From: Anaerolineae bacterium
GTDB taxonomy: Bacteria; Chloroflexota; Anaerolineae; B4-G1
NCBI GenBank assembly: GCA_034430835.1
Contig: DAOUDX010000220.1
Coordinates: 344-64,343, forward strand
Reading direction: 5' to 3'
Length of the DNA: 64,000 nucleotides
Program-made: the position numbers and the translations under genes
In this document: in pieces, positions 5,785 to 33,499 of the stretch
How the letters are laid out: each line of letters begins with the position of its first letter
How positions within the stretch are numbered: position 1 is the stretch's first letter
Notes under the pieces: generated by a model
Databases searched by the model: none
Told to the model about the DNA's origin: nothing
The model's input: the letters and a program-made list of their open reading frames with translations, nothing else

Positions 5785-5819
5785 CGGGATACCTCCTGCG
5801 GGCTTGCGCATTCACGATC

Positions 5820-5828
5820 AGTATAGCA
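5820..5828 (-). promoter_or_regulatory. candidate extended -10 promoter element (TGcTATACT) upstream of the A2M gene
   Basis: The minus strand reads aTGcTATACT about 36 nt upstream of the ATG. No convincing -35 was found. The upstream GNAT gene ends at 5936, so read-through is an alternative. Confidence 0.3.
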
Positions 5829-5935
5829 TAGGACTCGCCGTCGTGGAAGCTTGCGGCGGGGAGTCTGCCATCAAGACGTAGAAGGGGGGAGAAAAGTTCC
5901 GAGGGGGTGGCGTAGCGTGTGGAACAGATCTGGTG

Positions 5936-6952
5936 TCACGCTCTGCGGACGACGAGGCGACGCACTTCGATGTCCTGTCCGCCAAGCTGATACTTGTAGC
6001 GCTCGTCGCCCTGCAAGAAATCAAACACCTCGATTCCCTGCTCGATGGCGTGGCGAATGCAGTGGGCGGCGAGCACGATGCCTGCGCTGAGGTGGGGGAA
6101 GGTTTCCCAATCCAGCCCAGAGTTGTAGACCATCACGCGGTTGTTGTAGACAAAGTTGATGTAGGCGGCGGCCTTTTGGCCTTCGATCTCGAGGAACGCC
6201 AGTTGCAGCCAACCGGCGTCGCACATCACGCGCGCCAGCTCGCGGAAGAAGCTACGCATCTGTGATGTGAGAAACGACTCCTTGTCGGGCGTGCTGGCCG
6301 CCATCAAGTCGAGAAAGTCCTCGATTTCAGTCCCCAGGTCGTGCTCCAGGCCGACAAGATACCAGTGTAGTCCAGGCTCAGCTTCTGCGCGCCGTAGCTT
6401 GCGGCGCAACTCGTGGCGGTTTTTCTTGCCCAGCACCTGCAGGTACTCGTCCCACGTGCCGGGCAACTGCAAGACGGGGCAGACGTCCTCCTTTGCCGCC
6501 GAGGCGGTCCAGCCGCGCGCTTCGGCCAGGGCGGGCAGCATTGCCAGCGTGGGCGAGCCCTGATGGATGTTGCACAGGTCGAGCACGTCCCAGCGGGGCG
6601 CGCCTGACCCCGACAGGTAGTCCATCAGCGCCGCGTAGACCTCCTGTTCCCGTCCCCGGGCCGCGATGAGATCGAGGTAGTCGGCCACCTCCACAGAGCC
6701 GACGATCGCCAGTGCCCGCTCTCCCTGTACGTTTTTCGTCGCAAAGAGCGGTGCGATGCCGATCAGCTCGCCGCTATCGCGCACGGCGACGACCTGCAAC
6801 TCACCCTCGCCCAGGTACCGCCACCACAACCGCTGGAACTCGAGCGTGAGGAAAATGGTGTCAGCGGGAGAGCGGTGGAGCAGGTCGTTCCACTCGCTCT
6901 CCAGCTCCTCGAAGGCGCTTGCGTCTTGATAGGTGCGTACCGATAGAGTCAT
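5936..6952 (-). CDS. GNAT-fold acyltransferase, CelD/BioF2-like (FemAB-related) family
   Basis: ORF track 5936-6991. The first codon at 6991 is TTG, and the ATG at 6952 (MTLSVRTYQD...) is my preferred start. Pattern ...GKKNRHELRRKLRRAE..., ...AAYINFVYNNRVMVYNSGLD..., ...FDFLQGDERYKYQLGG... fits the CelD-like GNAT family from memory. Confidence 0.75.
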   Translation of the reverse strand: MTLSVRTYQDASAFEELESEWNDLLHRSPADTIFLTLEFQRLWWRYLGEGELQVVAVRDSGELIGIAPLFATKNVQGERALAIVGSVEVADYLDLIAARGREQEVYAALMDYLSGSGAPRWDVLDLCNIHQGSPTLAMLPALAEARGWTASAAKEDVCPVLQLPGTWDEYLQVLGKKNRHELRRKLRRAEAEPGLHWYLVGLEHDLGTEIEDFLDLMAASTPDKESFLTSQMRSFFRELARVMCDAGWLQLAFLEIEGQKAAAYINFVYNNRVMVYNSGLDWETFPHLSAGIVLAAHCIRHAIEQGIEVFDFLQGDERYKYQLGGQDIEVRRLVVRRA

Positions 6953-6992
6953 CTCGATAACTATGATAGCACAGCCGGGCGGGTCTGGCAAA

Positions 6993-7964
6993 TCAGGCGT
7001 CGTCTTCCGCCTGCGAATCTGTCGGGTGGCGCTTCAACAGGTCGCCCACCACCCCGACGCCGTGGACCGCGCCGCCGACCAATCCGGTGGCCAATGTGAT
7101 TAACCCGATCGACGTGCCCAACGCCGTCGAAGCCTCGTCGGCAGCGCCCGTCGGCGCAAAAAGCGCCCGGCTCACGTTCTCCCGGATCCCCCACCCGCCG
7201 ATGGAGGGAAGGAGCGTCGCTACAGAGATCAGCGGCGTGACGACGAAAAAGTACCCTAGATTGACGCCGATGTCCAGCGCCTGCCCGCACAGCCAGTTGA
7301 TGACGACGTTCATGACGTTGAACACCACCGACACGCCGAAGGCGCGCCCGATCGCGCGCCAGCCGCAGCCGGTGATCGCGGCATAGATCTTGGCCAGCGG
7401 CCCTTCCCCGGCCAACGAGAGCCTGGCCGGCAGCCAGCCCGTGATCCGCCGCAGCACATGTCCCTCCAAAAGCAACCCGCCCGCGACCAGCCCGCCGCCC
7501 GCCACGACGATCAGCGCCCCCACCAGCCAGGGTTCCATGGTGGCGGCGACGAACGGCAAGATGATCAGCCCAATGGCAAAGTTGACCAATAGGCCCGTCG
7601 CGCGATCGAGCAAGACAGTGCCGATCGCTGCGGAGGATTCCGTGTCCTGGGTCAACTCCAGCGCCCGCACCACATCGCCGCCGTAGCCACTGGGCAGAAA
7701 CGTGCTAAAGAACTGCCCGACAAAGTACAGGCGCAATAGGCGGCTGAAGGGCACGTCGGGGTCGAGCCCCTGCAACAACACAAACCAGCGATAGGCCCGC
7801 ACGACCAGGCTGAGGACAAAGAGCAGAAATGCAGCCCCCAGGTATGCCAGCTTGGCTTCTGCCAACTCAGCCAGCACCCGGCGCAGATCGACCGTCAAGA
7901 CCAAGAAGACCAGTGCTGCCATGGTGATCGCCACCCGCAGGACGTTCATCCAGCGTTTCTTCAT
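6993..7964 (-). CDS. flippase-like polytopic membrane protein (UPF0104 / lysyl-phosphatidylglycerol synthase TM-region family)
   Basis: 323-aa ORF with about 8 hydrophobic segments. The N-terminus MKKRWMNVLRVAITMAALVFLV...VRAYRWFVLLQG...YFVGQFFSTFLPSGYGGDVVRA is characteristic of the MprF-flippase-like family. ATGA overlap with the upstream gene at 7961-7964. Confidence 0.8.
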   Translation of the reverse strand: MKKRWMNVLRVAITMAALVFLVLTVDLRRVLAELAEAKLAYLGAAFLLFVLSLVVRAYRWFVLLQGLDPDVPFSRLLRLYFVGQFFSTFLPSGYGGDVVRALELTQDTESSAAIGTVLLDRATGLLVNFAIGLIILPFVAATMEPWLVGALIVVAGGGLVAGGLLLEGHVLRRITGWLPARLSLAGEGPLAKIYAAITGCGWRAIGRAFGVSVVFNVMNVVINWLCGQALDIGVNLGYFFVVTPLISVATLLPSIGGWGIRENVSRALFAPTGAADEASTALGTSIGLITLATGLVGGAVHGVGVVGDLLKRHPTDSQAEDDA

Positions 7965-10189
7965 TTCTCCTCCATCACGCGAATCTTGCTCAGCAGCACG
8001 CGGTCGCCCATGCGATGACCGTCCTCCGCCAGGATGGGCAGGCGGCCCTCGTCGGAATGCAGGCCGACCTCGATGTCGTAAAAGCCCGGCGGCGTCGTCT
8101 CTCCCACCCTGAGATCGCGCACGTCCTCGACGATCTGGCCCGGCTCCCAGGAGAAGGTTGGGGCATTCCCCTCGATAGGCCAGCCGTCGTTCCAGGCCCA
8201 GACCTGGTTCTCGTCGCCGAGGACGTGAGCAAAGACGCCATAGCTCCGTTCCATCTTCGACAGCGCCCGCCAGTAGAGCGTCAGGCGGATCGTCTCGCCG
8301 GGGCGCACGGCGCGCCTATCCAGCGCATAGCCGACCAGCGCAGCCTTTCCGTCAAAGTTGGCATCCAGCGGGTTGGGAAATTCGCTATCGTGTGGCAAAA
8401 TCTCGACCGCCGCCAGACGCAGCGCGTCGCGCCCGTCGGGCGCGGTGAGGCGCGGGCCGTCGGGCAGGTAGAGGCCCACCTGGATGTATCCCGCGTCCGG
8501 CGCGTAAGCCGTCTCCGGGACGTGCACGCAGTACGTGTCGGCGAAGGGAACGCCCGGCTCCCAGGCGGTGGTCAGGTAGCGCCCCAGGCCGGGGTAGGTA
8601 TCCCGCTGGGCCACCATCGTGCCCGTGTCGCTTAACAGGTGAACGAAGACAGCATAGTTCTGCCCGGTCCGCGCCAGCGGCTCCCAATAGAGGGTGACCT
8701 CGATCTCCTCGCCCGGCTTGACGGCGGTCGGTGTGACCTCGTAGCCCAGCAGGCGGGCCGTATCGTCGAGGTCGGCGTTCACGCGGTTGGGTATGGTCGC
8801 GATCTCCGACGCGGTCAGCGGGCGAGGGCGACCAAAGCCTGGGGTCAGCACACCGACCAGCGCGTAGACGGCCAACGCCGCCATCCCAATCGCCACAACC
8901 GCTCCCGCCACCCAACCCCAACGGCGGGGGAAGAGCCGGCTCAGCCCTAGCGAGACCAGCACGGCGAACGCGGGCAGGCACGGGAAAAGAAAGCGCCCCA
9001 TCGGCCCGGCGGGTTGGATCGCGATGTAATAGAAGACGACGCCGACAAAGAGGAGGACGCTGGCGATCAGGGGGATCAGGAGGGCAGCGGGCGGGCTACC
9101 CCGGCGGGGGATCAGGTGGCCGGTCAGGGCGATGACGCAGAACCAGAACAGCGCCTGGTAAACGACCTCCGGCAGGGGGAGTTGTCCGTAGCCGAAGCGC
9201 CCCCACAGGCTGCTCCAGAGGTAGGGCAGACTCTGGGGAATGGCCCACAACCCCTCGGAAAATGACCGCCCCAACCACAGATCGTTGACCTTGCTCATGC
9301 CCGTGAGGTCGCCATAGAGCGCATAGTTGCGCGCAAACCACCACCCGGCGATAGCGACCGCCAGCCCGCCGACGATCAGGTTGCCTCGCAGAAAGGCGCG
9401 CCAACCGCCGGTGAGCGCAGTCGAACCGTCGCGCGTCCGCCACATGGCCAGCGCGTAAGCCAGCTCGATGAGGGCCGACAGCGCCACCAGGTTGAACTTG
9501 GTCAGGAGCGCCAGGCCGTAGAGGACGCCCAGCACGACGTCGATGCGCCAGCTTGGGCCGTGACGCACCAACCGCACGCACGCCCACAGCACCGCCCCGC
9601 CGCAGAGAGCGGCCAGGATGTCGTTGTTGATCGCGCCGCTCAGGTAGATGAACTGCGGGTTGAAACCGACCAGCGCCGCCGCGCCGGCCGCCAGCCCAGG
9701 CCGGCCGGGTGCGATCTCGCGCCCGATGCCATACGTCACGCAGACGACGCCCGCGCCGATGAGCACCGTCATCCAACGCACGACGTAGACAGCCAGAGTG
9801 ACGCCGTGGAACGGGAATTGCTCGTCCGCGCCGTGCAGATACTGGTTCTTGTTGTCGTCGCTGACCTCCCAGTAGCGGCTATCCCAGTGAGGATTGGTGG
9901 GCGGGTCGTAGTAGACGTCCTGCTCGACGTGCACCCACCAACTGGCGAGCGCGCCAAGGGCATAGTAGAGCGGCGGGTGGTGGCTCTGCGCGCGCGGCCC
10001 TTCGGCGGACTGCACCGGCAGCTCGCGGTAGACGATGAGGTGGCGCACGTAGCGGAAATGGCGTATCTCGTCGGTGGGCTCGTAGATGGGGGAGGAGAGA
10101 GTATAGGCGAGGGCCAGCGCCAGGTAGGCGGCGAGGATAATGAACAATGAGCAATGGGACAATGAACGACGGCGGAGGAGTGCTCTCAC
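7961..10189 (-). CDS. GT-C fold membrane glycosyltransferase (ArnT/PMT-like) with two C-terminal beta-rich modules
   Basis: ORF track 7961-10231. I prefer the GTG at 10189, which has GGAGG 9 nt upstream and avoids overlap with yfhO. Acidic first-loop motif PIYEPTDEIRHFRYV follows TM1, then at least 10 TM segments. The C-terminus carries two copies of the LLGY..PGE.I.VTLYW...Y.VFVHL...PPG.Y.I.VGLY module. Confidence 0.8.
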   Translation of the reverse strand: MRALLRRRSLSHCSLFIILAAYLALALAYTLSSPIYEPTDEIRHFRYVRHLIVYRELPVQSAEGPRAQSHHPPLYYALGALASWWVHVEQDVYYDPPTNPHWDSRYWEVSDDNKNQYLHGADEQFPFHGVTLAVYVVRWMTVLIGAGVVCVTYGIGREIAPGRPGLAAGAAALVGFNPQFIYLSGAINNDILAALCGGAVLWACVRLVRHGPSWRIDVVLGVLYGLALLTKFNLVALSALIELAYALAMWRTRDGSTALTGGWRAFLRGNLIVGGLAVAIAGWWFARNYALYGDLTGMSKVNDLWLGRSFSEGLWAIPQSLPYLWSSLWGRFGYGQLPLPEVVYQALFWFCVIALTGHLIPRRGSPPAALLIPLIASVLLFVGVVFYYIAIQPAGPMGRFLFPCLPAFAVLVSLGLSRLFPRRWGWVAGAVVAIGMAALAVYALVGVLTPGFGRPRPLTASEIATIPNRVNADLDDTARLLGYEVTPTAVKPGEEIEVTLYWEPLARTGQNYAVFVHLLSDTGTMVAQRDTYPGLGRYLTTAWEPGVPFADTYCVHVPETAYAPDAGYIQVGLYLPDGPRLTAPDGRDALRLAAVEILPHDSEFPNPLDANFDGKAALVGYALDRRAVRPGETIRLTLYWRALSKMERSYGVFAHVLGDENQVWAWNDGWPIEGNAPTFSWEPGQIVEDVRDLRVGETTPPGFYDIEVGLHSDEGRLPILAEDGHRMGDRVLLSKIRVMEEK

Positions 10190-10196
10190 GGCATGC

Positions 10197-12581
10197 CTAC
10201 CTCCGCCGCAGTAGTCGCCGGGCAACGGCACCGACGAGCAGCAGCAACGTCAAGCCGGTGATCGCCAGGCCGATCTTGGGCAGCGGCGGGTCGTAGGCCA
10301 GCACGACCCGGTGCTCGCCCGACGGGACGCAGACGGCGCGCAGGACATAGTCGGCGCGCACCAGCGGCGCGGGCTCGCCATCCACCTCGGCCCGCCAGCC
10401 GGGATAGGCCACCTCGCTGAGGACGAGCAGCCCGCCGCCGCCCGATACCTGCGCCTCGATCCGGTTTCCTTCGTCGCGCACGCCTTCCACCTCACCGCTC
10501 CCGTCGCCCGTGCACGATAGCGGCGACTCCACCAGCGCCACCGCGCGCGGGTCGAAATCAGGCTCGTGGATGCGGGCGAGGGTGCTCTCGTCGTCCAGCA
10601 CCGCGACCTGCGGCACGACCCACGCGCGGGGCAGCACGCCGGGTCGCTCGTAGACCCACACGCCCGATTCCTCCAGCGCCAGGCGGGGCGCGTCGGATCC
10701 CTCGAATTCCTGCGGGGCCGTCGTCACCAGGTAGCCGGCGTTGAGCAGGTCGTAGGTCCGTGCGCGCGGATCGGGCCGGGAGGTGATGAACTCTTCATAT
10801 CGCTGGAGGACCAGCGGGTCGTATCCAAAGACACTGCGCAGCCCGAACTCCATGCCGCCGTTGTGCTCGAAATCATTCAGCCCCCAGGGGAGCACGCGCG
10901 CGGCCTGGGGGTCCTCCACGGCCTGGGAGATGATGCGCCAGTACGCGCTCTCCTGCACGTCCACCGGCTGCACCGCCCCGCCGCCGAAAGTCCACAGGTC
11001 GAGCACGACCAGGCCCAGCGCCAGCAGCCACAACGCGCGGCGGGAGAGCGCGCCGTTGCGCCAGGCGCGCAGCAGGCCGGTCGATAGGAGGAAGAACAGC
11101 AAGAACGTCGCCGTCTGATTGGCCAGGTGGTATAGCCGCCCCGCCGCCGGGTTCGACTCGCGCCCCCAGGCAAAGGCCGCGAATCCGGCCACGACCACTA
11201 TCGCCGCGATCCCCGCCACGGTCAGAAAGATGGAGCGCTTGAGTGGCCTAAGCAGCCGTCGTCGTTCCTCCCCCCCTCTATCCCCCCCCTTGGGGGGGAG
11301 GCATCCCCCTCTGTCCCCCCGGATGGGTCCTTCCCCTGCTCTATCCCCCCCGGTGGGGGGGACGAGGGGGGGGGTGAGGGATTGAAGCGCCGTCACCATC
11401 AGCCCGGCCAGCGCGGCGGCGGCCAATGTGAAGAGGAACCCGGCCCTGGCCGGGGCCCGCACCGACTGGAACAGCGGCACGAAGCGATAGAACAGGGGAT
11501 GGAGCGCGCCGTACTCCCCAAAGGCCAGCAGCAGCGCGCCCAGGCCGAGGGCGAACAGGAACGGCTTCAATCGATGGCACAGCCTGAGGCCCAGCAGCGC
11601 CAGCAGCAGCGGCAGGACGCCGACGTAGAGGATGAACTCGTCGTAGATGCCATCGCCCCAATAGCCGGTGCGCAGCGGCTCGCCGAAAAAGTTGGGCACC
11701 AGGAGGGTGAGCAGGTAGCCCGGCGGCCAGGAGAAGCGGGCGGCGAAATCGTAGCTGCCCCCCTGCCGCACCGAGTGGGCGACCAACTCGACCGTCGGCA
11801 GAACCTGCACCGCTGCTAGCGCCAGCCCGACGAGGAGCATCGCGCTCGTCTGTGCCAGCGGGAGCGCCGCCGCTCGCACCGTCCGCTCCTCCCGCCAACC
11901 TTCCCAGGCGCGGAAAGCGGCGTAGGCGGCCAGCCCCAGCGCCACGTAGAGGAACGAGGCGGTGTGGCCCGCCAGGATCGAGAGCCCGACCGGTAGTCCC
12001 CCCAGCACAGCCAGACCCCACGACCGGCGCGCCGTGGCGCGCCCGTAGGCCCACAGCACGAAGGGCAGCCACGTCCCGGTGGTGATGACGCCCAGGTGGC
12101 CCGCCTGCACGCGCACGAAAAAATAGCCGCTGAAGGCAATGACGGTCCCGCCGACGAGCGCCCCGGCCTTCGACGCGCCCTCCGCGCGCAGCCATGCATA
12201 CATCCCCGTCCCCGCCAGCCACAGGTGCAGGACGACGATCAGCCCCAGCGCCTTGGGGACGGGCAGCAGCAGCGCCAGCCACGTGGGGGGGTAGAAAAGC
12301 GCTGGCTGGGGGTTGGCGACGAAGGGCAACCCCGAGGAGAGGTAGGGGTTCCACAGCGGCAGGCGGCCCTGGTGGATCGAGGAACGGGCGAAGCTGAGCC
12401 AGTGGTAGAACATATGGGTCAGATCGTTCCCGGCGACGATGCGGCTGGAGGGCAGCCACAGCACGTCCCAAAAGAAGGCCAGGCATAGCAATCCCAGGGC
12501 CGCAACCGGCCAGGCGCTGCGCCAGAGGGTGTCTATTCTGTGTCTCTGTCTCCCAATTTCATCCATGATGGAATAGCTCAC
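10197..12581 (-). CDS. yfhO: YfhO-family membrane glycosyltransferase-like protein
   Basis: 794-aa ORF. The N-terminus ...IVAGNDLTHMFYHWLSFARSSIHQGRLPLWNPYLSSGLPFVANPQPALFYP... and the C-terminus ...SEVAYPGWRAEVDGEPAPLVRADYVLRAVCVPSGEHRVVLAY are the hallmark YfhO pattern. Confidence 0.85.
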   Translation of the reverse strand: MSYSIMDEIGRQRHRIDTLWRSAWPVAALGLLCLAFFWDVLWLPSSRIVAGNDLTHMFYHWLSFARSSIHQGRLPLWNPYLSSGLPFVANPQPALFYPPTWLALLLPVPKALGLIVVLHLWLAGTGMYAWLRAEGASKAGALVGGTVIAFSGYFFVRVQAGHLGVITTGTWLPFVLWAYGRATARRSWGLAVLGGLPVGLSILAGHTASFLYVALGLAAYAAFRAWEGWREERTVRAAALPLAQTSAMLLVGLALAAVQVLPTVELVAHSVRQGGSYDFAARFSWPPGYLLTLLVPNFFGEPLRTGYWGDGIYDEFILYVGVLPLLLALLGLRLCHRLKPFLFALGLGALLLAFGEYGALHPLFYRFVPLFQSVRAPARAGFLFTLAAAALAGLMVTALQSLTPPLVPPTGGDRAGEGPIRGDRGGCLPPKGGDRGGEERRRLLRPLKRSIFLTVAGIAAIVVVAGFAAFAWGRESNPAAGRLYHLANQTATFLLFFLLSTGLLRAWRNGALSRRALWLLALGLVVLDLWTFGGGAVQPVDVQESAYWRIISQAVEDPQAARVLPWGLNDFEHNGGMEFGLRSVFGYDPLVLQRYEEFITSRPDPRARTYDLLNAGYLVTTAPQEFEGSDAPRLALEESGVWVYERPGVLPRAWVVPQVAVLDDESTLARIHEPDFDPRAVALVESPLSCTGDGSGEVEGVRDEGNRIEAQVSGGGGLLVLSEVAYPGWRAEVDGEPAPLVRADYVLRAVCVPSGEHRVVLAYDPPLPKIGLAITGLTLLLLVGAVARRLLRRR
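11268..11380 (-). repeat. G/C-homopolymer-rich triple repeat inserted in frame in yfhO
   Basis: Three copies of CCCTCT(A/G)TCCCCCC, each followed by a short spacer and a G-run (for example ccccccccTTGggggggagg and cccccccGGTggggggg, then a run of about 9 G). Encodes TPPLVPPTGGDRAGEGPIRGDRGGCLPPKGGDRGGEE between two TM segments. Confidence 0.8.
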
Positions 12582-12679
12582 TCGCTACCTTGCTTTGCAA
12601 AGTACTTTCCTGGCTGAGTTAGGCGCGCAATAGAGCAATCAGGTGCGGCCAATCATGCAACATAACCAGCAAGTAAGAC

Positions 12680-14653: not shown

Positions 14654-14716
14654 TGTGTGCCCCTTCTGTTAGTGCTGCTGCCCAACGTGTAGTTTAACAG
14701 AACCAAGCCGATCTGT

Positions 14717-19161: not shown

Positions 19162-19193
19162 CACAAGAGCGCAGGAACGAGACCGATCAATGC

Positions 19194-20987: not shown

Positions 20988-21025
20988 TTTAACACCTCTT
21001 TCACTGCCTTTGGGGGAGCAGCGGG

Positions 21026-21054
21026 ATTGTACCACCTGCTGCAAACACTGTCAA
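21026..21054 (-). promoter_or_regulatory. near-consensus sigma70-type promoter for the DUF11 gene
   Basis: The minus strand reads TTGACA (21054-21049), a 17-nt spacer ending in TGg, then TACAAT (21031-21026). It lies about 39 nt upstream of the GTG start. Confidence 0.6.
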
Positions 21055-21273
21055 CCATTACAGAATGACATGATCTGGCATTCAGCCGAACTTAACGCCA
21101 TCTACCCTCTGCGGCTTCCCTGTCTCCGGTCAGGCACAAACGACCATCACTCAGCGACCCATCAAGCACCAACATGGACAGACGTTGCATTGCCAAAAAA
21201 CCACACACCGCGCAATCTCTACGGAACGACGGTGATTTGTATCTTCTCGAAAAGTGGGGAGCGTAACAGCGGA

Positions 21274-21317
21274 GGCGGCCCCCATGCCGCCGGACGGTCG
21301 GGCGTGGGAGCCCGACC
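21274..21317 (-). terminator. two consecutive GC-rich hairpins downstream of the preceding GT-C gene (possible transcription-unit boundary)
   Basis: GGTCGGGC-gtggga-GCCCGACC (21296-21317, perfect 8-bp stem) and GGCGGC-ccccat-GCCGCC (21274-21291) lie 17-60 nt after the stop at 21334. There is no clear U-tract, so intrinsic-terminator status is uncertain. Confidence 0.3.
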
Positions 21318-21333
21318 TGCTACTTTCTCCGAA

Positions 21334-23355: not shown

Positions 23356-23374
23356 CACCCTCGCCCTCTCACAC

Positions 23375-25417: not shown

Positions 25418-25444
25418 AGGAGCACCCTGTTCGATCAGAACCAC

Positions 25445-25453
25445 ATTATACCA
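25445..25453 (-). promoter_or_regulatory. candidate extended -10 promoter (TGgTATAAT) for the 23375-25417 gene
   Basis: The minus strand reads taTGGTATAATgtgg. The -35 is weak. This is the divergent partner of the plus-strand promoter below. Confidence 0.4.
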
Positions 25454-25502
25454 TAGACGGTCGCTTCTGCATCTTGCGCTGGGATGCTAACTGTCGAACC
25501 AT

Positions 25503-25530
25503 TTGACATCACCCCCTCCTATCGTATAAT
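25503..25530 (+). promoter_or_regulatory. near-consensus sigma70-type promoter for the DUF2079 gene
   Basis: TTGACA (25503-25508), 16-nt spacer, TATAAT (25525-25530), 18 nt upstream of the ATG at 25549. The leader is short and has no obvious SD. Confidence 0.55.
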
Positions 25531-25548
25531 CGATTTGCGGAAACTCGA

Positions 25549-27315: not shown

Positions 27316-27318
27316 TTC

Positions 27319-29331
27319 CTATTCAGCAGGCGGGACGAGGACGTGATCGGCGATAGGCTGGCCGGTTTCCCCTAGCACATCCCAACGCTTGCCACTGTCC
27401 GGCTTTGGATCATACAGCCCCAGCCTCACCGTGTAAGGCCCGGCGGGTGCATCAGGCGGGAGCGTGAAACGGTGAAACTGGACGAACCGGTCGCCGGGCC
27501 GGAGCGTGAGCGGGTCTACCCACAACCCGTCGTCGCCGGCAACTTGCGTGCCATCAGCAGCCAGCAGATGGGCAAATACCTTCAGCCGTGGCCCGGAGTA
27601 TACGCCCGGCGGGGGCGGGTTGGCGACGATGGGCATGGGCGGCAGATCGAGCGGCTCTGCGACGAGCCAGAAAGTCCGCAGCGCTGTCTCGTCTATCCAC
27701 TGCGCTTCGACCAACTCCAGTCCATTGGCAAAGCGCGCTAGTGGGTTGGAGATCGGAGATTGGAGACTGAAGACTGGCGGCAGGGTGTAGAGTGTCAAGT
27801 GAGGCGAGACGGCTTGGGGCGGATTCTCGCTTCCTGCCAGGAAGCCATCGATCGGCCAGGTTGAAGGGGGCCATGACGTGAGCATCACGGCTGAGGGAGT
27901 GTCGTCTGTCCAGATCAACGCCCGGCCTGGGTCGAAGAGACGCACGCTGAGATCATCTTGTTGGGTGTCTGCCTCCAACGCCAACCGATCCCAAGGGCCC
28001 AACAGCGTGCTAGAGACTGCGACGTCGGTGACCTCGGGATGGGCGTCCAGGTAGCGGGCTGCCTCGCGGTAATCGGCGCGGTACAGCACGCGCACCATCT
28101 CCTGACGTGGCCAGATGACGAAATAGTCGTAGAGGTCGCGCACGGCGTTGCTAGCGAGGAAAATGACAAATAGCAAATAGCAAATGGTGGATTTGCGATT
28201 TGCGATTTGCGATTTGCTCCATTGACAAGCTTCGACCAGCGGCAAGATCGGGAGAATGTAGACAACAGGTTGCGCGAGTATAGAGTGGCTCAGGCTGGCC
28301 GACGGGATGCTGATGAACGTAGGAAACAGCCCAAGGCCCAGCCACAGGAGCAGGAGAAAGTAACGCGGTTGCCGCCAGCGGTATAGGCATAGTCCGACGC
28401 CTGCCCACAGGAGCACGCCACCGAGAAGGTTGAAAACCGGGCGGTCAGCGATGTTGTATAACCATTCGGGGTCACCGGTAGCGTGGAACATGCCCAGCGT
28501 CGTCCAGGCGTTCTCCAGCAGCGGTTGAGGGTTGCCGGCCAGCAGTTCGTTCAGTGGCACGGCCAGTTCGGCCAGGCGAGCGTCGGCCCCCACTCCTTGC
28601 GCGGCAGCCTCGCTGCGACCGCGGGCAATGGCGATCCACATCGGCATTGCCAACACCATCGCCAGGAGCAGGGTCGCCAGGAGGGGCCGCCACCAGCGCC
28701 GGAACTGCTCCCGGTGAAAAACGGCCAGATAGAGACCGAATGCCAGCAGCACGAAGGGGATCAGGCGACTGGCCGTGTAGGTGTAGAGCGCGGCGGCTAG
28801 GAATACCCCGCTTTCCACCACCCGCATCCTGGACTTGCGCGAAGGGCGATCCGCTGCCCACAACAGGCAGAACACAGCCAGCGCCAGCGGCACGAGCACC
28901 TCGTGGCGCACGCCGAAGCGGCTGTACATCAGCGGCCAGAAACCAAAGGTCATGAGAGCCGCCGCCAAGAGCGCCGCCGTCCGCCCGAAAAGTCTCCGGC
29001 ACAGCCGATAGGTCAGCGCGACGGCCAAGGTGCCCGAGATGATGGGAATCAGATGCCCGGTGACAGGGTTAATGCCCCACAGCGCGATCGCGCCGGCACG
29101 CAGTGTGTGGTAGAGTGGCTCGTGGCCGGAGGCCCCCGTGAAGTAGAATGTCGGGTGTCCGGCCAGCACTTGCCCGGAGAGAGCGTATATCTCGATCAGT
29201 TCGTCGTCGCGCCAGCCCGGAGGAACGGTGCCCAGGCAGCACAGGCGCAGGCCCCAGGCGAGAAGGAGTATACCGACGATTAGCCAGCGATCGATCTGCG
29301 ATTGGCGATTGGCGATCAGCGATTTCGTCAT
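27319..29331 (-). CDS. GT-C fold membrane glycosyltransferase (ArnT/PMT-like) with C-terminal beta-rich module; tandem paralog 3 of 3
   Basis: ORF track 27319-29829. The first 166 codons are Arg-rich and overlap the upstream gene. ATG at 29331 (MTKSLIANRQSQIDRWLIVG...) forms an ATGA overlap with the upstream stop. First loop PPGWRDDELIEIYAL. C-terminus ...FAHLLAADGTQVAGDDG...PPDAPAGPYTVRLGLY. Confidence 0.8.
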   Translation of the reverse strand: MTKSLIANRQSQIDRWLIVGILLLAWGLRLCCLGTVPPGWRDDELIEIYALSGQVLAGHPTFYFTGASGHEPLYHTLRAGAIALWGINPVTGHLIPIISGTLAVALTYRLCRRLFGRTAALLAAALMTFGFWPLMYSRFGVRHEVLVPLALAVFCLLWAADRPSRKSRMRVVESGVFLAAALYTYTASRLIPFVLLAFGLYLAVFHREQFRRWWRPLLATLLLAMVLAMPMWIAIARGRSEAAAQGVGADARLAELAVPLNELLAGNPQPLLENAWTTLGMFHATGDPEWLYNIADRPVFNLLGGVLLWAGVGLCLYRWRQPRYFLLLLWLGLGLFPTFISIPSASLSHSILAQPVVYILPILPLVEACQWSKSQIANRKSTICYLLFVIFLASNAVRDLYDYFVIWPRQEMVRVLYRADYREAARYLDAHPEVTDVAVSSTLLGPWDRLALEADTQQDDLSVRLFDPGRALIWTDDTPSAVMLTSWPPSTWPIDGFLAGSENPPQAVSPHLTLYTLPPVFSLQSPISNPLARFANGLELVEAQWIDETALRTFWLVAEPLDLPPMPIVANPPPPGVYSGPRLKVFAHLLAADGTQVAGDDGLWVDPLTLRPGDRFVQFHRFTLPPDAPAGPYTVRLGLYDPKPDSGKRWDVLGETGQPIADHVLVPPAE
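28167..28217 (-). repeat. heptamer-tandem palindrome embedded in frame in the GT-C gene
   Basis: The plus strand reads (CAAATAG)x2-CAAAT ggtgg (ATTTGCG)x3-ATTTGC. The arms are inverted copies of the heptamer AATCGC(A/C), with one mismatch per unit. Encodes ...WSKSQIANRKSTICYLLFVIF... Confidence 0.85.
29287..29325 (-). repeat. five degenerate tandem heptamers (A/G)ATCGCN directly after the start codon
   Basis: Coding strand ATGACG AAATCGCT GATCGCC AATCGCC AATCGCA GATCGAT. Encodes SLIANRQSQID. Confidence 0.8.
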
Positions 29332-31367
29332 TTGCCCGTGACTCTCACCGGCTCCAAGAATACCCTGTCGCTGACCTCGACACCATCGGCAACGACGGGC
29401 AGGCGCTTTCTGCTGTGCCGGTTGTAGATGCCTACCGCCACACTGTACTGGCCGGGGGGTGTGTCGGCGGGGATCTGGACCCGGTGCAACTGCACGAACG
29501 TGTCCCCCGCGCGCCAGTTCCAGGCTGGTGCATCCAACCGATCCTCTTGACCGACGATGGTGTCGTCCGCGTCGAGGACGTGCACGAAGAGGGCCGCAGC
29601 GCGGCCATAGGCGGTCTCGGGCACGGGGCCGAGACCGTTCGGGTCGCGTACGCGCCAGAGAGTGGCCAGCGAGACCGTCTCGCCAGGACTGACCTCCGGT
29701 GCGGGTGGGGCGTAGGCCAATAGTTCCACCGCGCCAAAGTCTATGGGCAAGTTGAATGACTCTCCGTTCACGATCGCCGCCCTGCCCGGCATCTCCAAGA
29801 AGCGGGAAAGCGCTTTGCTGGGGTTCCACTCGAACACGTCAAAGTAGGGATCGATGTCGTCGGGGCGCTGGTGAACGCGCTCGACCAGTTGGAGATCGAG
29901 TTGTTCGGCAAAGTAGGGATCGAGCGGTGTGTTCGGCGGCAGGATGAACAGGCTGCGTGTCGAATTAGGAAACACGACCGCCCGGCGGGCGTCGAACCAG
30001 CGCAAATGCAGGTCGTCGCGGCGCATGCGCATATCGACGATGAAGGGGTCAAGGGGGACATCGGGAAACGGAGTTGAAAGCATCACTGCGCTGCTGTATT
30101 CCGTGTCGGCCAAGTAATCGGCGATAGCGACCACGTTCTGGAAGTAGGCCGCGCGGGTGTCCGGAGATTGCCCCCACCGGATTAAGTAATCGTAGCTGGT
30201 GAATGCCGCGATGACGATCAGCCACACCACGCAGGCCGTGGCAAAGACCCTGCTCCAGCCCTGGCCGATGCGCTTGCTGATGAAGCGCCCAACCTCGACG
30301 GCGCACAGGGCCGGCAAGGCCAGGATCGGTGACTGGGCGGCGTTGCTGTGCGACGAGCTGATCCACTCGCCGGTGATCAGCGAAGGCACCAGCCCCATCG
30401 CCATCCACATCAGCGTGAAGGCATAGGCCGGTTTGCGCCAGCGCCAGATGCACAGCACAACGCCACCGCAAAAGAACAAGCTGGTCACAGGGTCAAAGAT
30501 GGGCCGCCCTGGTAGATTGTAAGTGAGGAAGCTGTCGCCGCTGAAGCTGAACGTACCCAGCGTGCTGGCAACGTTGCTCAGTAGAGGCTTTAAGTTACCC
30601 TGCGCTGCCTCCTTTATTGGTCCAGACAGCATGTTCGTGCGTCCCCATGAGGAAGGGTCGAGCAGGTGAGGGGCGGTGAGGAGTCCGACGAGTAGCAACG
30701 CGCCGATGAACCAGATGGCGTGACGGCGCAAGCGAGGGCGGTGGAAAATCGCCAAGTAGATGAGCAGCAGGCCAAAGGAAGCCGATGCCGCGAGCGCCGA
30801 CTCGTAGGCGTAGAAAGACGTAGCGAGCAGAAGGACGAACAGTCCCCAGGCCCACCAGCGCCTTTTTCCTTCAGCATGATCTATCGCAAGCCACAGGAAG
30901 TATACTGCACCGGTGACCAGCGGGGGGGCAGAGGAGATATTGAGGGCCACGCGGCTCATCGAAACAGTCCAGTACGAAACGGCCACCAGGGCGGCGCTGC
31001 CCAACCCCACGGCTGTGCCAAACGACCGACGCGCCCACAGGTACGTGAAAACCAGAAGCGCCATGCCGAGGGACACGGTGTGCATGCGCACGGCCAGATC
31101 GTTTGGGCCGAACAGGGCCATGAAAAGCGCACCAACGTACATCGTGAACGGCTGGTAGGCGTAACCGTAGGGCGTCTCGACCGGTGAAGGCGCGCCGGTG
31201 CGGTAGACCGCCTCGATAAAGTAGCCCGTGTCCGCCTCGTCGTGCGTCACGCCGGGCGGGATGGTGTCGATATGGTAGAGGCGCAGGAAGGCCGCCACCA
31301 GCAGGATGACGACGAACAGCCCGGTGGCGATCAGCGATCGACGATTGGCGATTGACGGCTCGGTCAT
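29328..31367 (-). CDS. GT-C fold membrane glycosyltransferase (ArnT/PMT-like) with C-terminal beta-rich module; tandem paralog 2 of 3
   Basis: ORF track 29328-31559. ATG at 31367 (MTEPSIANRRSLIATGLFVV...) forms an ATGA overlap with the upstream stop. First loop PPGVTHDEADTGYFIEA. C-terminus VELLAYAPPAPEVSPGETVSLATLW...ALFVHVLDADDTIVGQEDRLDAPAWNW...TPPGQYSVAVGIY. Confidence 0.8.
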   Translation of the reverse strand: MTEPSIANRRSLIATGLFVVILLVAAFLRLYHIDTIPPGVTHDEADTGYFIEAVYRTGAPSPVETPYGYAYQPFTMYVGALFMALFGPNDLAVRMHTVSLGMALLVFTYLWARRSFGTAVGLGSAALVAVSYWTVSMSRVALNISSAPPLVTGAVYFLWLAIDHAEGKRRWWAWGLFVLLLATSFYAYESALAASASFGLLLIYLAIFHRPRLRRHAIWFIGALLLVGLLTAPHLLDPSSWGRTNMLSGPIKEAAQGNLKPLLSNVASTLGTFSFSGDSFLTYNLPGRPIFDPVTSLFFCGGVVLCIWRWRKPAYAFTLMWMAMGLVPSLITGEWISSSHSNAAQSPILALPALCAVEVGRFISKRIGQGWSRVFATACVVWLIVIAAFTSYDYLIRWGQSPDTRAAYFQNVVAIADYLADTEYSSAVMLSTPFPDVPLDPFIVDMRMRRDDLHLRWFDARRAVVFPNSTRSLFILPPNTPLDPYFAEQLDLQLVERVHQRPDDIDPYFDVFEWNPSKALSRFLEMPGRAAIVNGESFNLPIDFGAVELLAYAPPAPEVSPGETVSLATLWRVRDPNGLGPVPETAYGRAAALFVHVLDADDTIVGQEDRLDAPAWNWRAGDTFVQLHRVQIPADTPPGQYSVAVGIYNRHSRKRLPVVADGVEVSDRVFLEPVRVTGK
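31326..31353 (-). repeat. four degenerate tandem heptamers (A/G)ATCG(C/T)N directly after the start codon
   Basis: Coding strand ...CCGTC AATCGCC AATCGTC GATCGCT GATCGCC. Encodes SIANRRSLIA. Confidence 0.8.
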
Positions 31368-33499
31368 TCGCTCACGATCTCCAACGATTGCAGAAGCACG
31401 CGATCTCCCGCGACGCTGCCGCCCACCACGACGGGCAGGCGGGTTCCATCGGAGCGGCGATACACACCGACCTCCAGGGTGACCGATCTCTCGGAGAGAT
31501 CGGCGGGCAACGCGAGGCGGTGGATCTGTGCGATCACGTCCCCTATCTGCCAGTCCCACGCTGGCGCGTCGAGCCGATCCTCCTGGCCGACGATGTTTCC
31601 CGCCTCATCCAGCGCGTGGGTGAAAAGCACCAGGTCTTCCTCCACGTTGGATAGGTCCTGGGGTCGCAGCGGCTCCGGGTCGATCACGCGCCACAGCGTG
31701 ACCAACTCGATCGTCCCGCCCGGCGCGACCTGTGGCGTGCGCAGGTCGTAGCCCAGGAGGCGCAGCGCGCCATTCTGCCCCGCGCTCGAAGGGGCAAAGC
31801 TCGCCAGCTCTCCGTGCACGCGCGCCTGTAGCGCGGCCAGGGCCGCCTGCGGCTCCCACTCGTAGACGTCGAAATACGGGTCCAGGTCGTCTTCGCGCAG
31901 CATCACACGCTCCCGCACGCGGAGGCCGGGCAGGTCGGCGAAATACGGGTCGAGGGGCACCCGCGCGGGCACGACCAGCCAACCGCTCTTCTCCGCCGGA
32001 AATACGATGGCCCGCCCTCCGTCGAACCAGCGCAGCGATAAATCATCCCGTTGCAGACACATGTCGAAGACGCAAGGGTCGTGGGGCGCGTGGGGCAGAT
32101 AGGTAGAGATGCCTACGCCCTCGATTGCCGGGGCGGTATCGAGGTAGTCGGCTATCTCGACGAGCGTGTGCTTGTAAGCGTCACGCACCTCCGGCGATTC
32201 ACCCCAGGTGACGAAGTAGGCGTGGGCGGAGGCAGCACCGATGGCAACGATGGCGACAGCAAACGCCGCTCCCATAGCCCAGGTGACCCATTGCCCACGG
32301 CAACTTCTGGCAAGGCCAGAAGTTGCTAAACAATTCCCGGCTCTGCCGGGAATTGTCCGTGCCCCCTCCACAACGGCCAGCGCCGGGAAGAGAAAGGCCA
32401 CCGGCAGCGCGGCGATGCCGCGGGTGAAGCTGGCGGTCGCGCCGGTGATCAGCGAGGGGGAGATGCCGACGAGGAGCCAGATCAGCGCAAAGGCGCAGGC
32501 CGGTCGTCGCCAACGTGCCAGGCATAGCGCCACGCCGACCAGGGACAGCGCTCCCGTCAGCGGGTCGAAGGTCGGGCGGCCGGGGACGTTGTAGGCCAGA
32601 AACCGGTCGCCCCGCCCGGGAATGAAAAAGCCGGTCACGCAACTCCAGGCCCTGTCCAGGATCACGGAGAAATCCCCGCTCTTCAGCGCTTGTAGGGGTT
32701 CGTCCAGCATCGCCAACCTTTGCTCTGCCTCCGGGTGGGCCTGCAGGTAGACGAAGAGCGGTGCGGCCAGGAGCAGCCCGATCAGCACAGCGGCCAGCGT
32801 GGGAGGCCACGCGCGTCGAAAGGCCTGCCGGTGGGCGAGCGCCAGATACGCCAGAAAGGCGGGGAAGACAATCCAGGTGACGCGGGCTGGCAAGTACGTC
32901 CACAGTGTAGCGCCGATGAACAGCGCGCACAGCGCCACGCTATAGGGGCGAGGTAGAGATGGCTCGCTGCTTGCCTCTGCATCGCCCTTCGGCTTTGTCT
33001 CGCCCCAACTGCGCCAATAGAAGACCACCGCAAACGTGAACAGCGCCGGCAGCAATCCGGAGCGCAGCGCCTGGCGTCCCACCGCCAGCGACCAGAACGA
33101 GACTGCCTGGAGTGCCGTTGCCGCCAGCGCCGTGGGCTGATCGAAGGCCAGTTGCACCCAGAGATACGTCGCCAGCAGCGTGAGCAGGCTCAAGGGGACG
33201 GGAGAAAACCGCAGCACACTCCCCGTCGGACCGAACAGCGCCATCAGTCCGGCCACCAGGTAGTCGTATAGGGGTTCGCGGCCATATCCGACTGTCTGAT
33301 AGATGGGGCGCGCGCCGTTGAGGATGGCAATAGCATCCTGGCCGTGGCCGGCCTCGTCGTGGGTGAAGCCGGGGGGGATGTCATCCAGGCGATAGACCCG
33401 CAGGAAAGCAGCCAGCAGCAGGATCGTTACCAATGACACCAATCTCACGGTCGGATGGCTAATGGACAGTCTGAGGTTTGAGATTTGAGATTCGGCCAT
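31364..33499 (-). CDS. GT-C fold membrane glycosyltransferase (ArnT/PMT-like) with C-terminal beta-rich module; tandem paralog 1 of 3
   Basis: 711-aa ORF. First loop PPGFTHDEAGHGQDAIAI. C-terminus LRLLGYDLRTPQVAPGGTIELVTLW...VLFTHALDEAGNIVGQEDRLDAPAWDW...VTLEVGVY. Clearly paralogous to 29328-31367. Confidence 0.85.
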   Translation of the reverse strand: MAESQISNLRLSISHPTVRLVSLVTILLLAAFLRVYRLDDIPPGFTHDEAGHGQDAIAILNGARPIYQTVGYGREPLYDYLVAGLMALFGPTGSVLRFSPVPLSLLTLLATYLWVQLAFDQPTALAATALQAVSFWSLAVGRQALRSGLLPALFTFAVVFYWRSWGETKPKGDAEASSEPSLPRPYSVALCALFIGATLWTYLPARVTWIVFPAFLAYLALAHRQAFRRAWPPTLAAVLIGLLLAAPLFVYLQAHPEAEQRLAMLDEPLQALKSGDFSVILDRAWSCVTGFFIPGRGDRFLAYNVPGRPTFDPLTGALSLVGVALCLARWRRPACAFALIWLLVGISPSLITGATASFTRGIAALPVAFLFPALAVVEGARTIPGRAGNCLATSGLARSCRGQWVTWAMGAAFAVAIVAIGAASAHAYFVTWGESPEVRDAYKHTLVEIADYLDTAPAIEGVGISTYLPHAPHDPCVFDMCLQRDDLSLRWFDGGRAIVFPAEKSGWLVVPARVPLDPYFADLPGLRVRERVMLREDDLDPYFDVYEWEPQAALAALQARVHGELASFAPSSAGQNGALRLLGYDLRTPQVAPGGTIELVTLWRVIDPEPLRPQDLSNVEEDLVLFTHALDEAGNIVGQEDRLDAPAWDWQIGDVIAQIHRLALPADLSERSVTLEVGVYRRSDGTRLPVVVGGSVAGDRVLLQSLEIVSE
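33472..33492 (-). repeat. three tandem heptamers AA(T/C)CTCA directly after the start codon
   Basis: Coding strand ATGGCCG AATCTCA AATCTCA AACCTCA. Encodes ESQISNLR. Confidence 0.75.

Follow-up and report, generated by a model that had tools for sequence, protein, structure and literature searches.

The locus at positions 5936 to 33499 of the window, by which we mean the 64,000-nucleotide (nt) stretch of Anaerolineae bacterium contig DAOUDX010000220.1 (assembly GCA_034430835.1) to which our coordinates refer, encodes about ten polytopic enzymes of the membrane glycosyltransferase class GT-C. Eight of them, here GTC1 to GTC8, are PMT/ArnT-like and have an acidic motif in the first outer loop, and they are accompanied by a YfhO-family protein and by a DUF2079 protein that is a putative GT-C. 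Synteny is also conserved with three further genes, whose products are a GNAT protein, a flippase-like protein, and a secreted protein with isopeptide domains. The array most likely builds or decorates a cell-surface glycan or glycoprotein. On balance, and with some reserve, we read the locus as an island for cell-envelope glycosylation that is conserved yet modular, and in which separate decorators draw on polyprenyl-phosphate sugars made elsewhere. An initial annotation of the sequence had proposed the stepwise assembly of one complex glycan, an interpretation that is partly supported by the analysis below.

Evidence for GT-C enzymes

That most members are GT-C enzymes follows from Pfam profiles, from orthologues, and from one structure model. 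Genes were called from a six-frame listing of open reading frames (ORFs), codon-position GC content, and profile searches with Pfam and NCBIfam. The PMT_2 model (PF13231; GT39/GT83-like), which has a gathering threshold (GA) of 26.1 bits, matched GTC5 (50.5 bits), GTC7 (44.8 bits), GTC3 (37.2 bits), and GTC6 (34.0 bits) at or above threshold and GTC8 (24.7 bits) and GTC2 (19.8 bits) below it. The Pfam PMT model matched GTC5 (29.6 bits) and GTC3 (21.4 bits). GTC1 and GTC4 had no Pfam match, even in a permissive scan to an E value of 10, and that scan left the GT-C matches unchanged and added none. Moreover, GTC8 is 38% identical to GTC7 from end to end (hhalign E = 2e-89), GTC6 is about 30% identical to GTC7 and GTC8 over its full length (hhalign probability 100%), and the membrane core of GTC2 matches the GTC6 and GTC7 profiles at 94% hhalign probability and the Agl23 model at 2.3e-5. 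More than 100 orthologues of GTC1 (59 to 91% identity) are annotated as GT39/ArnT-like and carry PF02366/PF13231. The YfhO protein exceeds the threshold of PF09586 (55 bits in two stretches; GA, 28.5 bits) and weakly matches PgfM2, and its orthologue in a related locus (L012) is likewise labeled YfhO. YfhO is an established GT-C of lipoteichoic acid and wall teichoic acid glycosylation (PMC8035078).

GTC4, the member least visible to profile searches, weakly matches the NCBIfam model of the putative glycosyltransferase LA_3751/3752. An AlphaFold (AF2) model of GTC4 was of high quality (predicted local distance difference test [pLDDT], 91.6; predicted TM-score [pTM], 0.89), and a Foldseek search of the PDB with the model returned ArnT (5ezm/5f15; E = 5.8e-7) as the best match, with further matches to ALG9, PglB, Pmt4, EmbC, EmbA/B, Pmt1-Pmt2, and ALG3. 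We conclude from the model that GTC4 has the GT-C fold. The AF2 model of GTC1 (pLDDT, 81.3) gave beta-sandwich proteins as all of its listed Foldseek matches (RbmA, C3 MG domains, transglutaminase, and arrestin), because the two C-terminal domains of GTC1 dominate the comparison, and the search was silent on the membrane core. Sequence searches of the PDB with GTC5, and with profiles of GTC1, GTC4, the DUF2079 protein, and the shared C-terminal domain (C-dom) described below, gave nothing significant. The GTC4 core family is found in Anaerolineae, several archaeal phyla, Planctomycetota, Gemmatimonadota, candidate phyla radiation (CPR) bacteria, and others (loci L019 to L046), and it is a GT-C family that is spread over bacteria and archaea and has no matching Pfam-A model.

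The initial annotation had counted eight PMT/ArnT-like proteins, one YfhO, one DUF2079 protein, an MprF-type protein, and a GNAT, with an acidic motif in each of the eight. Profile searches, orthologues, and the GTC4 model agree with that inventory, and the ORF listing places the genes where they had been put. Just past the first hydrophobic segment, GTC1 to GTC8 have TDE, WDQSE, FDE, WND, FDDE, RDDE, THDE, and THDE, respectively, and hydropathy and homology to ArnT put these motifs in the first outer loop. Residues E37, D40, and E41 of GTC1 do not vary among 47 orthologues. Position 32 of GTC4 (D32) is acidic, either D or E, in 46 of 46 ungapped sequences, D61 and K73 are conserved in all 48 homologues aligned and E40 in 47 of the 48, and D72 is conserved as well.

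A shared C-terminal domain on divergent cores

The eight PMT/ArnT-like proteins had been taken for paralogs, but only GTC6, GTC7, and GTC8 form a family, and the element common to all eight, the C-dom, had been overlooked. In all-against-all BLAST comparison, GTC6, GTC7, and GTC8 alone are alike over their full length, and the other pairs align over the last ~130 residues. When the C-dom was removed, profile comparison with hhalign was weak or nil between most cores, and hhalign gave no link of the DUF2079 or YfhO proteins to the PMT-like cores. Because the cores give so little signal once the C-dom is gone, the array contains at least five anciently separated PMT-like lineages in addition to YfhO and DUF2079, or at least seven lineages in total (GTC1, GTC2, GTC3, GTC4, GTC5, the GTC6-8 family, YfhO, and DUF2079).

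The C-dom is about 130 amino acids (aa) long and occurs nine times in the locus, once each in GTC2 to GTC8 and twice in GTC1, with invariant positions W46, F59, H61, D74, and G116. It matched no Pfam-A or NCBIfam model and had no sequence relative in the PDB. When 1.84 billion representative proteins were searched with a C-dom profile, 29,990 matched at E values of ≤1e-3 and 20,326 at ≤1e-10, and the ~30,000 clusters are defined at 50% identity. Up to four tandem copies occur per protein. Each of the top-scoring proteins that was scanned (9/9) carries a GT-C core (PMT_2, PTPS_related, DUF2142, or TMEM260-like), and all top proteins with an organism name are from Chloroflexota. In the GTC1 and GTC4 models, the C-dom is an all-beta sandwich that resembles the carbohydrate-binding domain of the O-antigen protein Wzt (TM-score, 0.58), NPC2/ML domains, and macroglobulin MG domains. 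A sequence relationship of the C-dom to the DUF11 protein of the locus or to the MG domains of the neighboring alpha-2-macroglobulin-like protein was considered and rejected after sequence comparison. C-terminal immunoglobulin-like carbohydrate-binding modules (CBMs) that bind acceptor glycans are found on the GT-C enzymes EmbC, AftD, and ORF12 of family GT136 (PMC11127046), and some GT-C enzymes of transmembrane glycosylation systems bear extracellular carbohydrate-binding domains (PMC8035078). We consider the C-dom a candidate new domain family. It is very large, extracytoplasmic, and joined to a GT-C-type core in every protein examined, and it is a target for domain curation and glycan-binding studies.

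The DUF2079 protein matches PF09852 at 266.5 bits (GA, 28.2 bits) over profile positions 1 to 458 of 459. DUF2079 belongs to Pfam clan CL0111, on which its putative GT-C status is based. Indirect support for a putative GT-C may come from D125 in the first predicted outer loop, which is invariant in 35 homologues, and from fusion to the C-dom, which is present in one to three copies in 19 of 120 homologues.

Related arrays and strain variation

The clustering noted at the outset is real and conserved in evolution, and a synteny search found arrays in related Anaerolineae genomes. GT-C-type genes make up 10 of the 14 genes of the locus versus 0 of the ~33 genes in the rest of the window (Fisher p = 2e-7), an enrichment that is not due to chance. 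The nearest genomes are uncultured Anaerolineae/Anaerolineales metagenome-assembled genomes, and arrays of 5 to 10 such genes occur in L001, L002, L009/L011, L012 to L014, L016 to L018, L022, L047, and L048, where labels of this form denote related loci from other genomes or assemblies. L001 and L002 (65 to 83% protein identity) have the order GTC1-YfhO-GTC2-DUF11-another PMT_2 enzyme-DUF2079-GTC6-GTC7-GTC8, and both are missing the helicase gene and GTC3. The order in L009/L011 is GTC8-GTC7-GTC6-like-GTC4-GTC3-DUF11-extra GTC-GTC2-GTC1-GNAT, and L012 has a compact core of DUF11-GTC2-YfhO-GTC1-flippase-like-GNAT. Loci L013, L014, L016 to L018, and L022 contain four to nine C-dom GT-C genes in ≤22 kb each, and L047 and L048 contain at least nine. 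Orthologues were found for GTC2 in L001, L002, L009, L012, L013, and L014 (58 to 68% identity), for GTC3 in L009, L013, and L014 (64 to 71%), and for YfhO in L001, L002, L012, and L049. The presence of GTC3, GTC5, YfhO, and DUF2079 varies by relative. Outside Chloroflexota (many archaea, Planctomycetota, CPR, and others), GTC4 homologues are about 450 aa long, lack the C-dom, and are solitary; therefore, fusion to the C-dom and arraying are Anaerolineae specific.

One distant Anaerolineae array contains genes of the kind that could supply donors. L047 encloses a 251-aa GT2 protein, for which NCBIfam gave ArnC, PgfS, AglJ, dolichyl-phosphate hexose transferase, and PpgS as best matches, as well as a 4,6-dehydratase-type short-chain dehydrogenase/reductase (SDR) and a PseC/ArnB-like aminotransferase. 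By its annotation, the trio fits the donor module expected for a polyprenyl-phosphate amino sugar, and donor-type genes inside an array fit the donor logic assumed in the initial annotation.

Four assemblies of a strain that is ~96% identical in DNA (L049 to L052) are collinear with the window except in two places, GTC5 and a slot next to the YfhO gene. In all four, GTC5 is split by an element of ~204 nt (L049, 8169 to 8372; window equivalent, ~24973) that has terminal inverted repeats (CACCGATTTCCCT/AGGGAAATCGGTG) and has duplicated the target sequence TGACA. The element is like a miniature inverted-repeat transposable element (MITE), and no copy of it is present in the window. In comparison with L049, the ratio of nonsynonymous to synonymous substitution rates (dN/dS) was lowest for the DUF2079 gene (0.12) and was 0.20 for GTC6, 0.33 for GTC7, and 0.21 for GTC8, without internal stops. 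Because these ratios are low and stops are absent, GTC6 to GTC8 and the DUF2079 gene are functional, yet because GTC5 is disrupted, a single member can be lost.

The possibility that there is no joint function, and that the locus is an accidental accumulation or a graveyard of duplicated membrane protein genes, is one to which we give hardly any credence. Foreign DNA has been inserted in the locus and one member is disrupted in the sister strain, as decay might predict. Synteny is retained, however, down to ~60% protein identity, dN/dS stays between 0.12 and 0.33, GT-C-type genes are confined to the locus within the window, and duplicates of recent origin would not have cores so divergent. Conservation and selection largely refute this explanation.

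Divergence between the window (27319 to 33138) and L049 (1 to 5820) is uneven, with nucleotide differences of 9.2% in GTC8 (dS 0.24), 4.0% in GTC7, and 1.4% in GTC6 and a dS of 0.02 in the DUF2079 gene. That adjacent genes differ so much suggests recombination or mosaicism within the island. Tandem heptanucleotide repeats of three to seven copies lie a few codons past the start of GTC6 (29304 to 29324), GTC7 (31328 to 31350), and GTC8 (33472 to 33492) and of their orthologues, and GTC6 has further repeats at 28167 to 28209 and 27746 to 27766. Repeat units include CAATCGC, CAAATCG, CCAATCT, and CAAACCC, and the repeat in GTC8 of L014 is CCAA. Relatives have repeats at 13737 to 13771 (L001); at 13630 to 13657, 15667 to 15687, and 17801 to 17828 (L002); and at 5798 to 5848 and 3667 to 3710 (L014). 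Five of the eight such repeat arrays in the window are in GTC6 to GTC8, and unit and copy number vary by species. The repeats resemble those of contingency loci. Phase variation through the 5' repeats is unsupported at present, as a 96.4%-identical strain had no insertion or deletion over 8,168 nt that span the GTC6 and GTC7 repeats, and a metagenome scan gave no repeat length alleles.

Gene layout and transcription units

The locus contains 14 genes, 13 on the minus strand and the DUF2079 gene alone on the plus strand (Table 1). The initial annotation had named twelve of these and passed over two, the genes for the helicase and for the DUF11/CLIPPER protein. In order of transcription, the genes are GTC8, GTC7, GTC6, DUF2079 (plus strand), GTC5, GTC4, DUF11/CLIPPER, GTC3, GTC2, helicase, YfhO, GTC1, flippase-like, and GNAT. 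The long ORFs listed for GTC4, GTC6, and GTC7 have spurious N-terminal extensions.

Table 1. Genes of the locus, in order of position in the window
Gene product	Coordinates	Strand	Basis
FemAB/CelD-like GNAT (Acetyltransf_6), last in long operon	5936..6991	-	Pfam PF13480
MprF-type flippase-like membrane protein, transmembrane domain only, 323 aa	6993..7964	-	PF03706, TIGR00374
GTC1, PMT/ArnT-like GT-C with two C-dom (8396-8821 and 7964-8395)	7961..10231, probable start 10189	-	Pfam matches of orthologues
YfhO-family GT-C	10197..12581	-	PF09586
UvrD/GajB-like helicase, foreign insertion	12680..14653	-	UvrD-helicase and UvrD_C domains
GTC2, PMT_2-like GT-C, C-dom 14720-15169	14717..16744	-	PMT_2 below GA, hhalign
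GTC3, PMT_2 GT-C, C-dom 16744-17166	16741..19206	-	PMT_2, PMT
Secreted DUF11/CLIPPER isopeptide-domain surface protein	19194..21044, probable start near 20987	-	DUF11, DUF7927, TIGR04226
GTC4, GT-C without matching Pfam-A model, C-dom 21337-21774	21334..23355	-	Structure model
GTC5, PMT_2 GT-C, C-dom 23378-23839	23375..25444	-	PMT_2, PMT
DUF2079 membrane protein, putative GT-C	25549..27315	+	PF09852
GTC6, PMT_2 GT-C, C-dom 27322-27759	27319..29331	-	PMT_2
GTC7, PMT_2 GT-C, C-dom 29331-29759	29328..31367	-	PMT_2
GTC8, PMT_2-like GT-C, C-dom 31367-31804, first gene of GTC8-7-6 operon	31364..33499	-	PMT_2 below GA, likeness to GTC7

The genes had been described as co-oriented and partly translationally coupled. 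Coupling stands, as stop and start codons overlap (ATGA or TTGA) at four junctions, namely, GTC8 stop/GTC7 ATGA, GTC7 stop/GTC6 ATGA, GTC3 stop/GTC2 TTG start, and GTC1 stop/flippase-like ATGA. Co-orientation does not hold throughout, as the DUF2079 gene is divergent from GTC5 and convergent with GTC6. Promoter-like sites were found upstream of GTC8 (33557 to 33529; 10 of 12 consensus positions), the DUF2079 gene (25503 to 25530; 12 of 12), and the DUF11 gene (21054 to 21026; 11 of 12 with TG). The overlaps and promoter-like sites suggest at least four transcription units, one of them on the opposite strand.

The ten GT-C enzymes could instead form a single assembly line that polymerizes and branches one envelope polymer wholly outside the membrane in a fixed order, as EmbA/B/C, AftA-D, and Mpt enzymes do in making mycobacterial arabinogalactan and lipoarabinomannan. 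Such an assembly line would explain why many distinct GT-C lineages have persisted across species with one-to-one orthologues (58 to 80% identity), why the blocks GTC8-GTC7-GTC6, GTC3-GTC2, and YfhO-GTC1-flippase-like-GNAT keep their order, and why genes are translationally coupled and under purifying selection, and CBM-like C-terminal domains are found in Emb and AftD as well. Yet an insertion has inactivated GTC5 in a conspecific strain, some syntenic arrays lack GTC3, GTC5, YfhO, and DUF2079, and the predicted transcription units number at least four. Moreover, no priming enzyme, polymerase, or ligase is encoded in or near the locus. We regard the assembly line as a doubtful alternative and the stepwise building of one glycan as an overstatement. 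Several transcription units, variable gene content, the MITE-like insertion in GTC5, and a slot for foreign DNA in the middle of the locus favor modular decorators no less than they favor a single linear pathway.

Accessory genes and the variable slot

The DUF11/CLIPPER protein has a single hydrophobic segment, at its N terminus, and matches DUF11 (76 bits in two stretches), DUF7927, and the isopeptide-forming fimbrial domain TIGR04226 (35.3 bits; cutoff, 30). Its C-terminal half of ~300 aa has no Pfam match. The DUF11 gene has an atypical composition, with a GC content at third codon positions of 0.63 versus ~0.8 in its neighbors and a regional GC content of 0.58 to 0.60. It lies within eight related arrays (L001, L002, L009, L010, L012, L013, L014, and L049), and its orthologues are 39 to 59% identical versus 58 to 80% for the enzymes. 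We consider the protein a candidate acceptor or partner of the enzymes.

That the array is dedicated to O-glycosylation of the DUF11/CLIPPER protein as a pilin- or adhesin-like fibre, in the manner of PMT O-mannosylation or streptococcal Pgf, seems unlikely. The gene sits inside eight related arrays, in the window it has a strong promoter-like site of its own, the protein shows the faster evolution, relative to the enzymes, that is common for targets exposed at the surface, the best Pfam matches of the enzymes are PMT and PMT_2, and the YfhO protein weakly matches PgfM2, all of which would suit a dedicated system. No DUF11 orthologue, however, was found within the 20-kb loci of the more distant arrays L016 to L018, L022, L047, and L048, and the protein lacks a Ser/Thr-rich disordered region. 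Furthermore, ten transferases far exceed the needs of any known protein O-glycosylation system, and the CBM-like fold of the C-dom points to glycan acceptors.

The flippase-like protein has seven hydrophobic segments, matches LPG_synthase_TM (PF03706; 133 bits) and TIGR00374 (50.9 bits; cutoff, 43.2), and in L012 and L018 its orthologues are encoded within the GT-C array. It is not an MprF (a bifunctional lysyl-PG synthase/flippase), as it consists of the transmembrane domain alone without a C-terminal aminoacyl-PG synthase domain and scores 18.5 bits with NF033480 (cutoff, 600). The GNAT protein matches Acetyltransf_6 at 100.8 bits, with weak matches to FemAB_like and to an NCBIfam model of a FemAB-family PEP-CTERM-associated protein. 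L011 and L012 have a GNAT orthologue after GTC1, and the L048 array closes with an Acetyltransf_6 gene. We note that a flippase transmembrane protein followed by a FemAB/CelD-like (dupli-GNAT-type) protein at 5936 to 7964 is a pair that recurs in L012. Conceivably, the two proteins resemble a split MprF, with flippase and aminoacyl-transferase parts encoded separately.

The helicase matches GajB models at 1.7e-49, and its gene has a GC content of 0.57 versus 0.64 to 0.70 in the flanks and is not present in L001, L002, L009, and L012. With GT-C genes on either side of the helicase gene, a GajA partner is absent, and the protein is an orphan UvrD-like helicase rather than part of a Gabija system. 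We conclude that the helicase is a foreign insertion outside the glycosylation system. It occupies a variable cargo slot between YfhO and GTC2 (12582 to 14716). The equivalent slot in L049 (18678 to 20799) holds a 212-aa ORF, an N6/N4 DNA methyltransferase gene, and a PhdYeFM antitoxin gene, and the slot is empty in L001 and L002.

Flanking genes

The flanking genes are envelope related rather than glycosylation related. Directly downstream of the GNAT gene and running off the window (1 to 5811, minus strand) is a gene for a bacterial alpha-2-macroglobulin-like lipoprotein of >1,937 aa. Its domains are four Big_5 domains, MG2, bMG3/5/6/10, a bait region, A2M, and TED, and it has a CTEQ thioester-like motif and a lipobox-like Cys near the N terminus. 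Other flanking genes encode an S41 peptidase, a PGA_cap protein, a YkuD L,D-transpeptidase, and Fpg. The remaining 25 kb of the window contains housekeeping genes, defense-like genes, and a gene for one rhamnosyltransferase-like GT2. At 45683 to 49746 (minus strand) are two adjoining genes of defense type in appearance but without confident PADLOC assignment, one for a 416-aa Mrr_cat nuclease with AAA/nSTAND1 domains and a weak LmuA match and the other for a 938-aa AAA_16/nSTAND1 NTPase, and an HNH (PtuB-like) gene lies at 54717 to 55286. A scan of the window found no tRNA or Rfam element. The GT2 gene at 56049 to 56975 was considered as a donor synthase and rejected, as its best matches are a rhamnosyltransferase and an MftF-like protein and not ArnC, GtrB, or DPM1.

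Discussion

How a modular glycosylation island of this kind might work can be outlined. ArnC/GtrB-type GT2 enzymes encoded elsewhere in the genome would make polyprenyl-phosphate sugars, and the co-operonic MprF-type flippase-like protein might flip the carrier-linked sugars. Each GT-C enzyme would then move a single sugar from the polyprenyl-phosphate carrier to an extracytoplasmic acceptor at the outer face of the membrane, and the C-dom might hold the acceptor as a CBM-like module, as in Emb, AftD, and ORF12 of GT136. The acceptor could be a wall-associated glycopolymer, the secreted DUF11/CLIPPER protein, or both, and the FemAB/CelD-like GNAT could add a nonsugar substituent. The enzymes would be a tool kit of linkage-specific decorators, with members gained and lost between strains, and no obligatory linear pathway would be needed.

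Several results weigh against this reading. Pfam and NCBIfam searches found no GT-A, GT-B, Wzx/Wzy, or ABC gene inside the locus, as the initial annotation had stated, and the same is true of donor supply on a wider scale, as the entire window lacks a donor synthesis gene and a recognized small flippase (GtrA, Wzx, or MATE). Comparison of folds with the PDB was informative for one member only, GTC4. The membrane region of the DUF2079 protein compared with the other cores gave hhalign probabilities of ≤1.6%, and a deeper DUF2079 profile built from 35 sequences gave a significant match only through the C-dom found in some DUF2079 homologues. The GT-C fold that had been assigned across the locus holds for GTC4 by its model and is supported by Pfam and orthologues for the other members except DUF2079, whose core is without detectable profile similarity to the other membrane cores. 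Finally, a Ser/Thr-rich linker of the type targeted by known bacterial O-glycosylation is not obvious in the DUF11 protein.

Agl23 is a further point on the same side. Purified Agl23, an archaeal PMT_2-like protein that is reported to be a flippase and not a transferase, translocates lipid-linked oligosaccharide in liposomes (PMC11182771), and its model, TIGR03663, is the top NCBIfam match of GTC1, GTC2, GTC5, GTC6, and GTC7. Some or all of the PMT_2-like proteins might by analogy be translocators of lipid-linked sugars, or noncatalytic partners that bind acceptors, and they might fill the place of the recognized GtrA, Wzx, or MATE flippase that the locus lacks. We think this improbable. Agl23 scores were 23.1 to 39.2 bits against a cutoff of 126.25, so far below it that no protein of the locus is an Agl23 member. 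In addition, conservation is strict at the acidic residues of the first loop that are typical of GT-C catalysis, and the locus already encodes a separate flippase-like protein. We continue to favor an island of GT-C decorators.

A more ambitious version of the island would be an Anaerolineae-specific, largely extracytoplasmic glycan assembly, in which up to ten GT-C enzymes, the DUF11/CLIPPER fibre, targeting by a glycan-binding C-dom, and an MprF-type lipid-sugar flippase act together. We think that this goes too far to be likely, but if true, it would be the Chloroflexota counterpart of mycobacterial arabinogalactan and lipoarabinomannan assembly and would build a complex envelope or sheath glycoconjugate on or around the fibre from polyprenyl-phosphate sugars. 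Little is known of the envelope composition of filamentous Chloroflexota, and nearly all Anaerolineae are uncultured. The array and its co-conserved surface protein may be the basis of envelope or sheath glycans in a group abundant in wastewater, sediment, and the subsurface. Because the enzymology of GT-C enzymes and lipid-linked donors is already established, the value of the locus is as a system variant and for annotation, in a phylum that is abundant in the environment and little studied, and not as a new principle.

Comparison with known systems

The literature searched contains no description of such GT-C arrays in Chloroflexi/Anaerolineae, nor of DUF2079, in keeping with the earlier remark that no characterized pathway has this composition. 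Chloroflexota are not known to produce teichoic acids, and Anaerolineae relatives are presumed to lack lipopolysaccharide. Among the closest systems is the multicomponent transmembrane glycosylation of monoderm bacteria (Firmicutes), e.g., CsbB-GtcA-YfhO, GtlA-GtcA-GtlB, and GacI-GacK-GacL (PMC8035078), in which wall polymers receive single sugars outside the membrane, from C55-P-sugar donors, through GT-C enzymes of the YfhO and PMT_2 types. Those systems consist of one GT-A, a small flippase, and one GT-C, whereas the present locus has ~10 GT-C enzymes, an MprF-type protein, and a GNAT. It is not a three-component or multicomponent system, as the GT-A synthase and the GtrA/Wzx/MATE flippase are missing from the locus and from the window.

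Mycobacterial and corynebacterial EmbA/B/C, AftA-D, and MptA-C, including the aftA-embCAB cluster, are likewise several different GT-C enzymes that are partly clustered. The Emb/Aft set builds a branched envelope polymer from polyprenyl-phosphate monosaccharides, with the acceptor bound by C-terminal CBMs (PMC11127046); the fold matches of GTC4 include Emb structures. Here, however, there is no Pfam arabinosyltransferase or GT87 match, the C-dom is of another family, the array is larger (8 to 10 genes), and the phylum is different. Moreover, loss of GTC5 at the strain level argues against synthesis of an essential backbone of the Emb/Aft kind. The GT136 pentofuranose system of Citrobacter youngae is alike by description, as its ORF12 is a GT-C with a C-terminal acceptor-binding CBM that acts extracytoplasmically and after polymerization (PMC11127046), but it has one GT-C per locus together with a polyprenyl-phosphoribose synthase and a MATE flippase.

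GTC4 matched ArnT best in structure, and the L047 array embeds ArnC-like, ArnA-like (SDR), and ArnB-like genes as in the Arn system (PmrHFIJKLM). Unlike the proteins of the array, ArnT modifies lipid A and is without such a C-terminal beta sandwich, the window has no Arn donor genes, and the PDB searches gave no match at the level of sequence. PMT/GT39, TMEM260, and PgfM1/M2 share the PMT/PMT_2 signature, a DE-type first-loop motif, and a surface protein gene adjoining the transferases, but the locus has no MIR domain and many more enzymes, and scores with the equivalog models were far under the cutoffs (23 bits versus 800 for NF058602; 24 bits versus 1500 for PgfM2). The PMT_2-like haloarchaeal protein Agl23 (TIGR03663), a reported flippase, is the NCBIfam model that most members match best, without membership in the family; the Agl23 family is known from Archaea and Chloroflexi. 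By analogy, then, the locus probably works like the GT-C systems named here but belongs to none of them, because it has neither the GT-A nor the small flippase, no equivalog is matched, the GT-C enzymes are more numerous and diverse, and the accessory domain that they carry is of a candidate new family.

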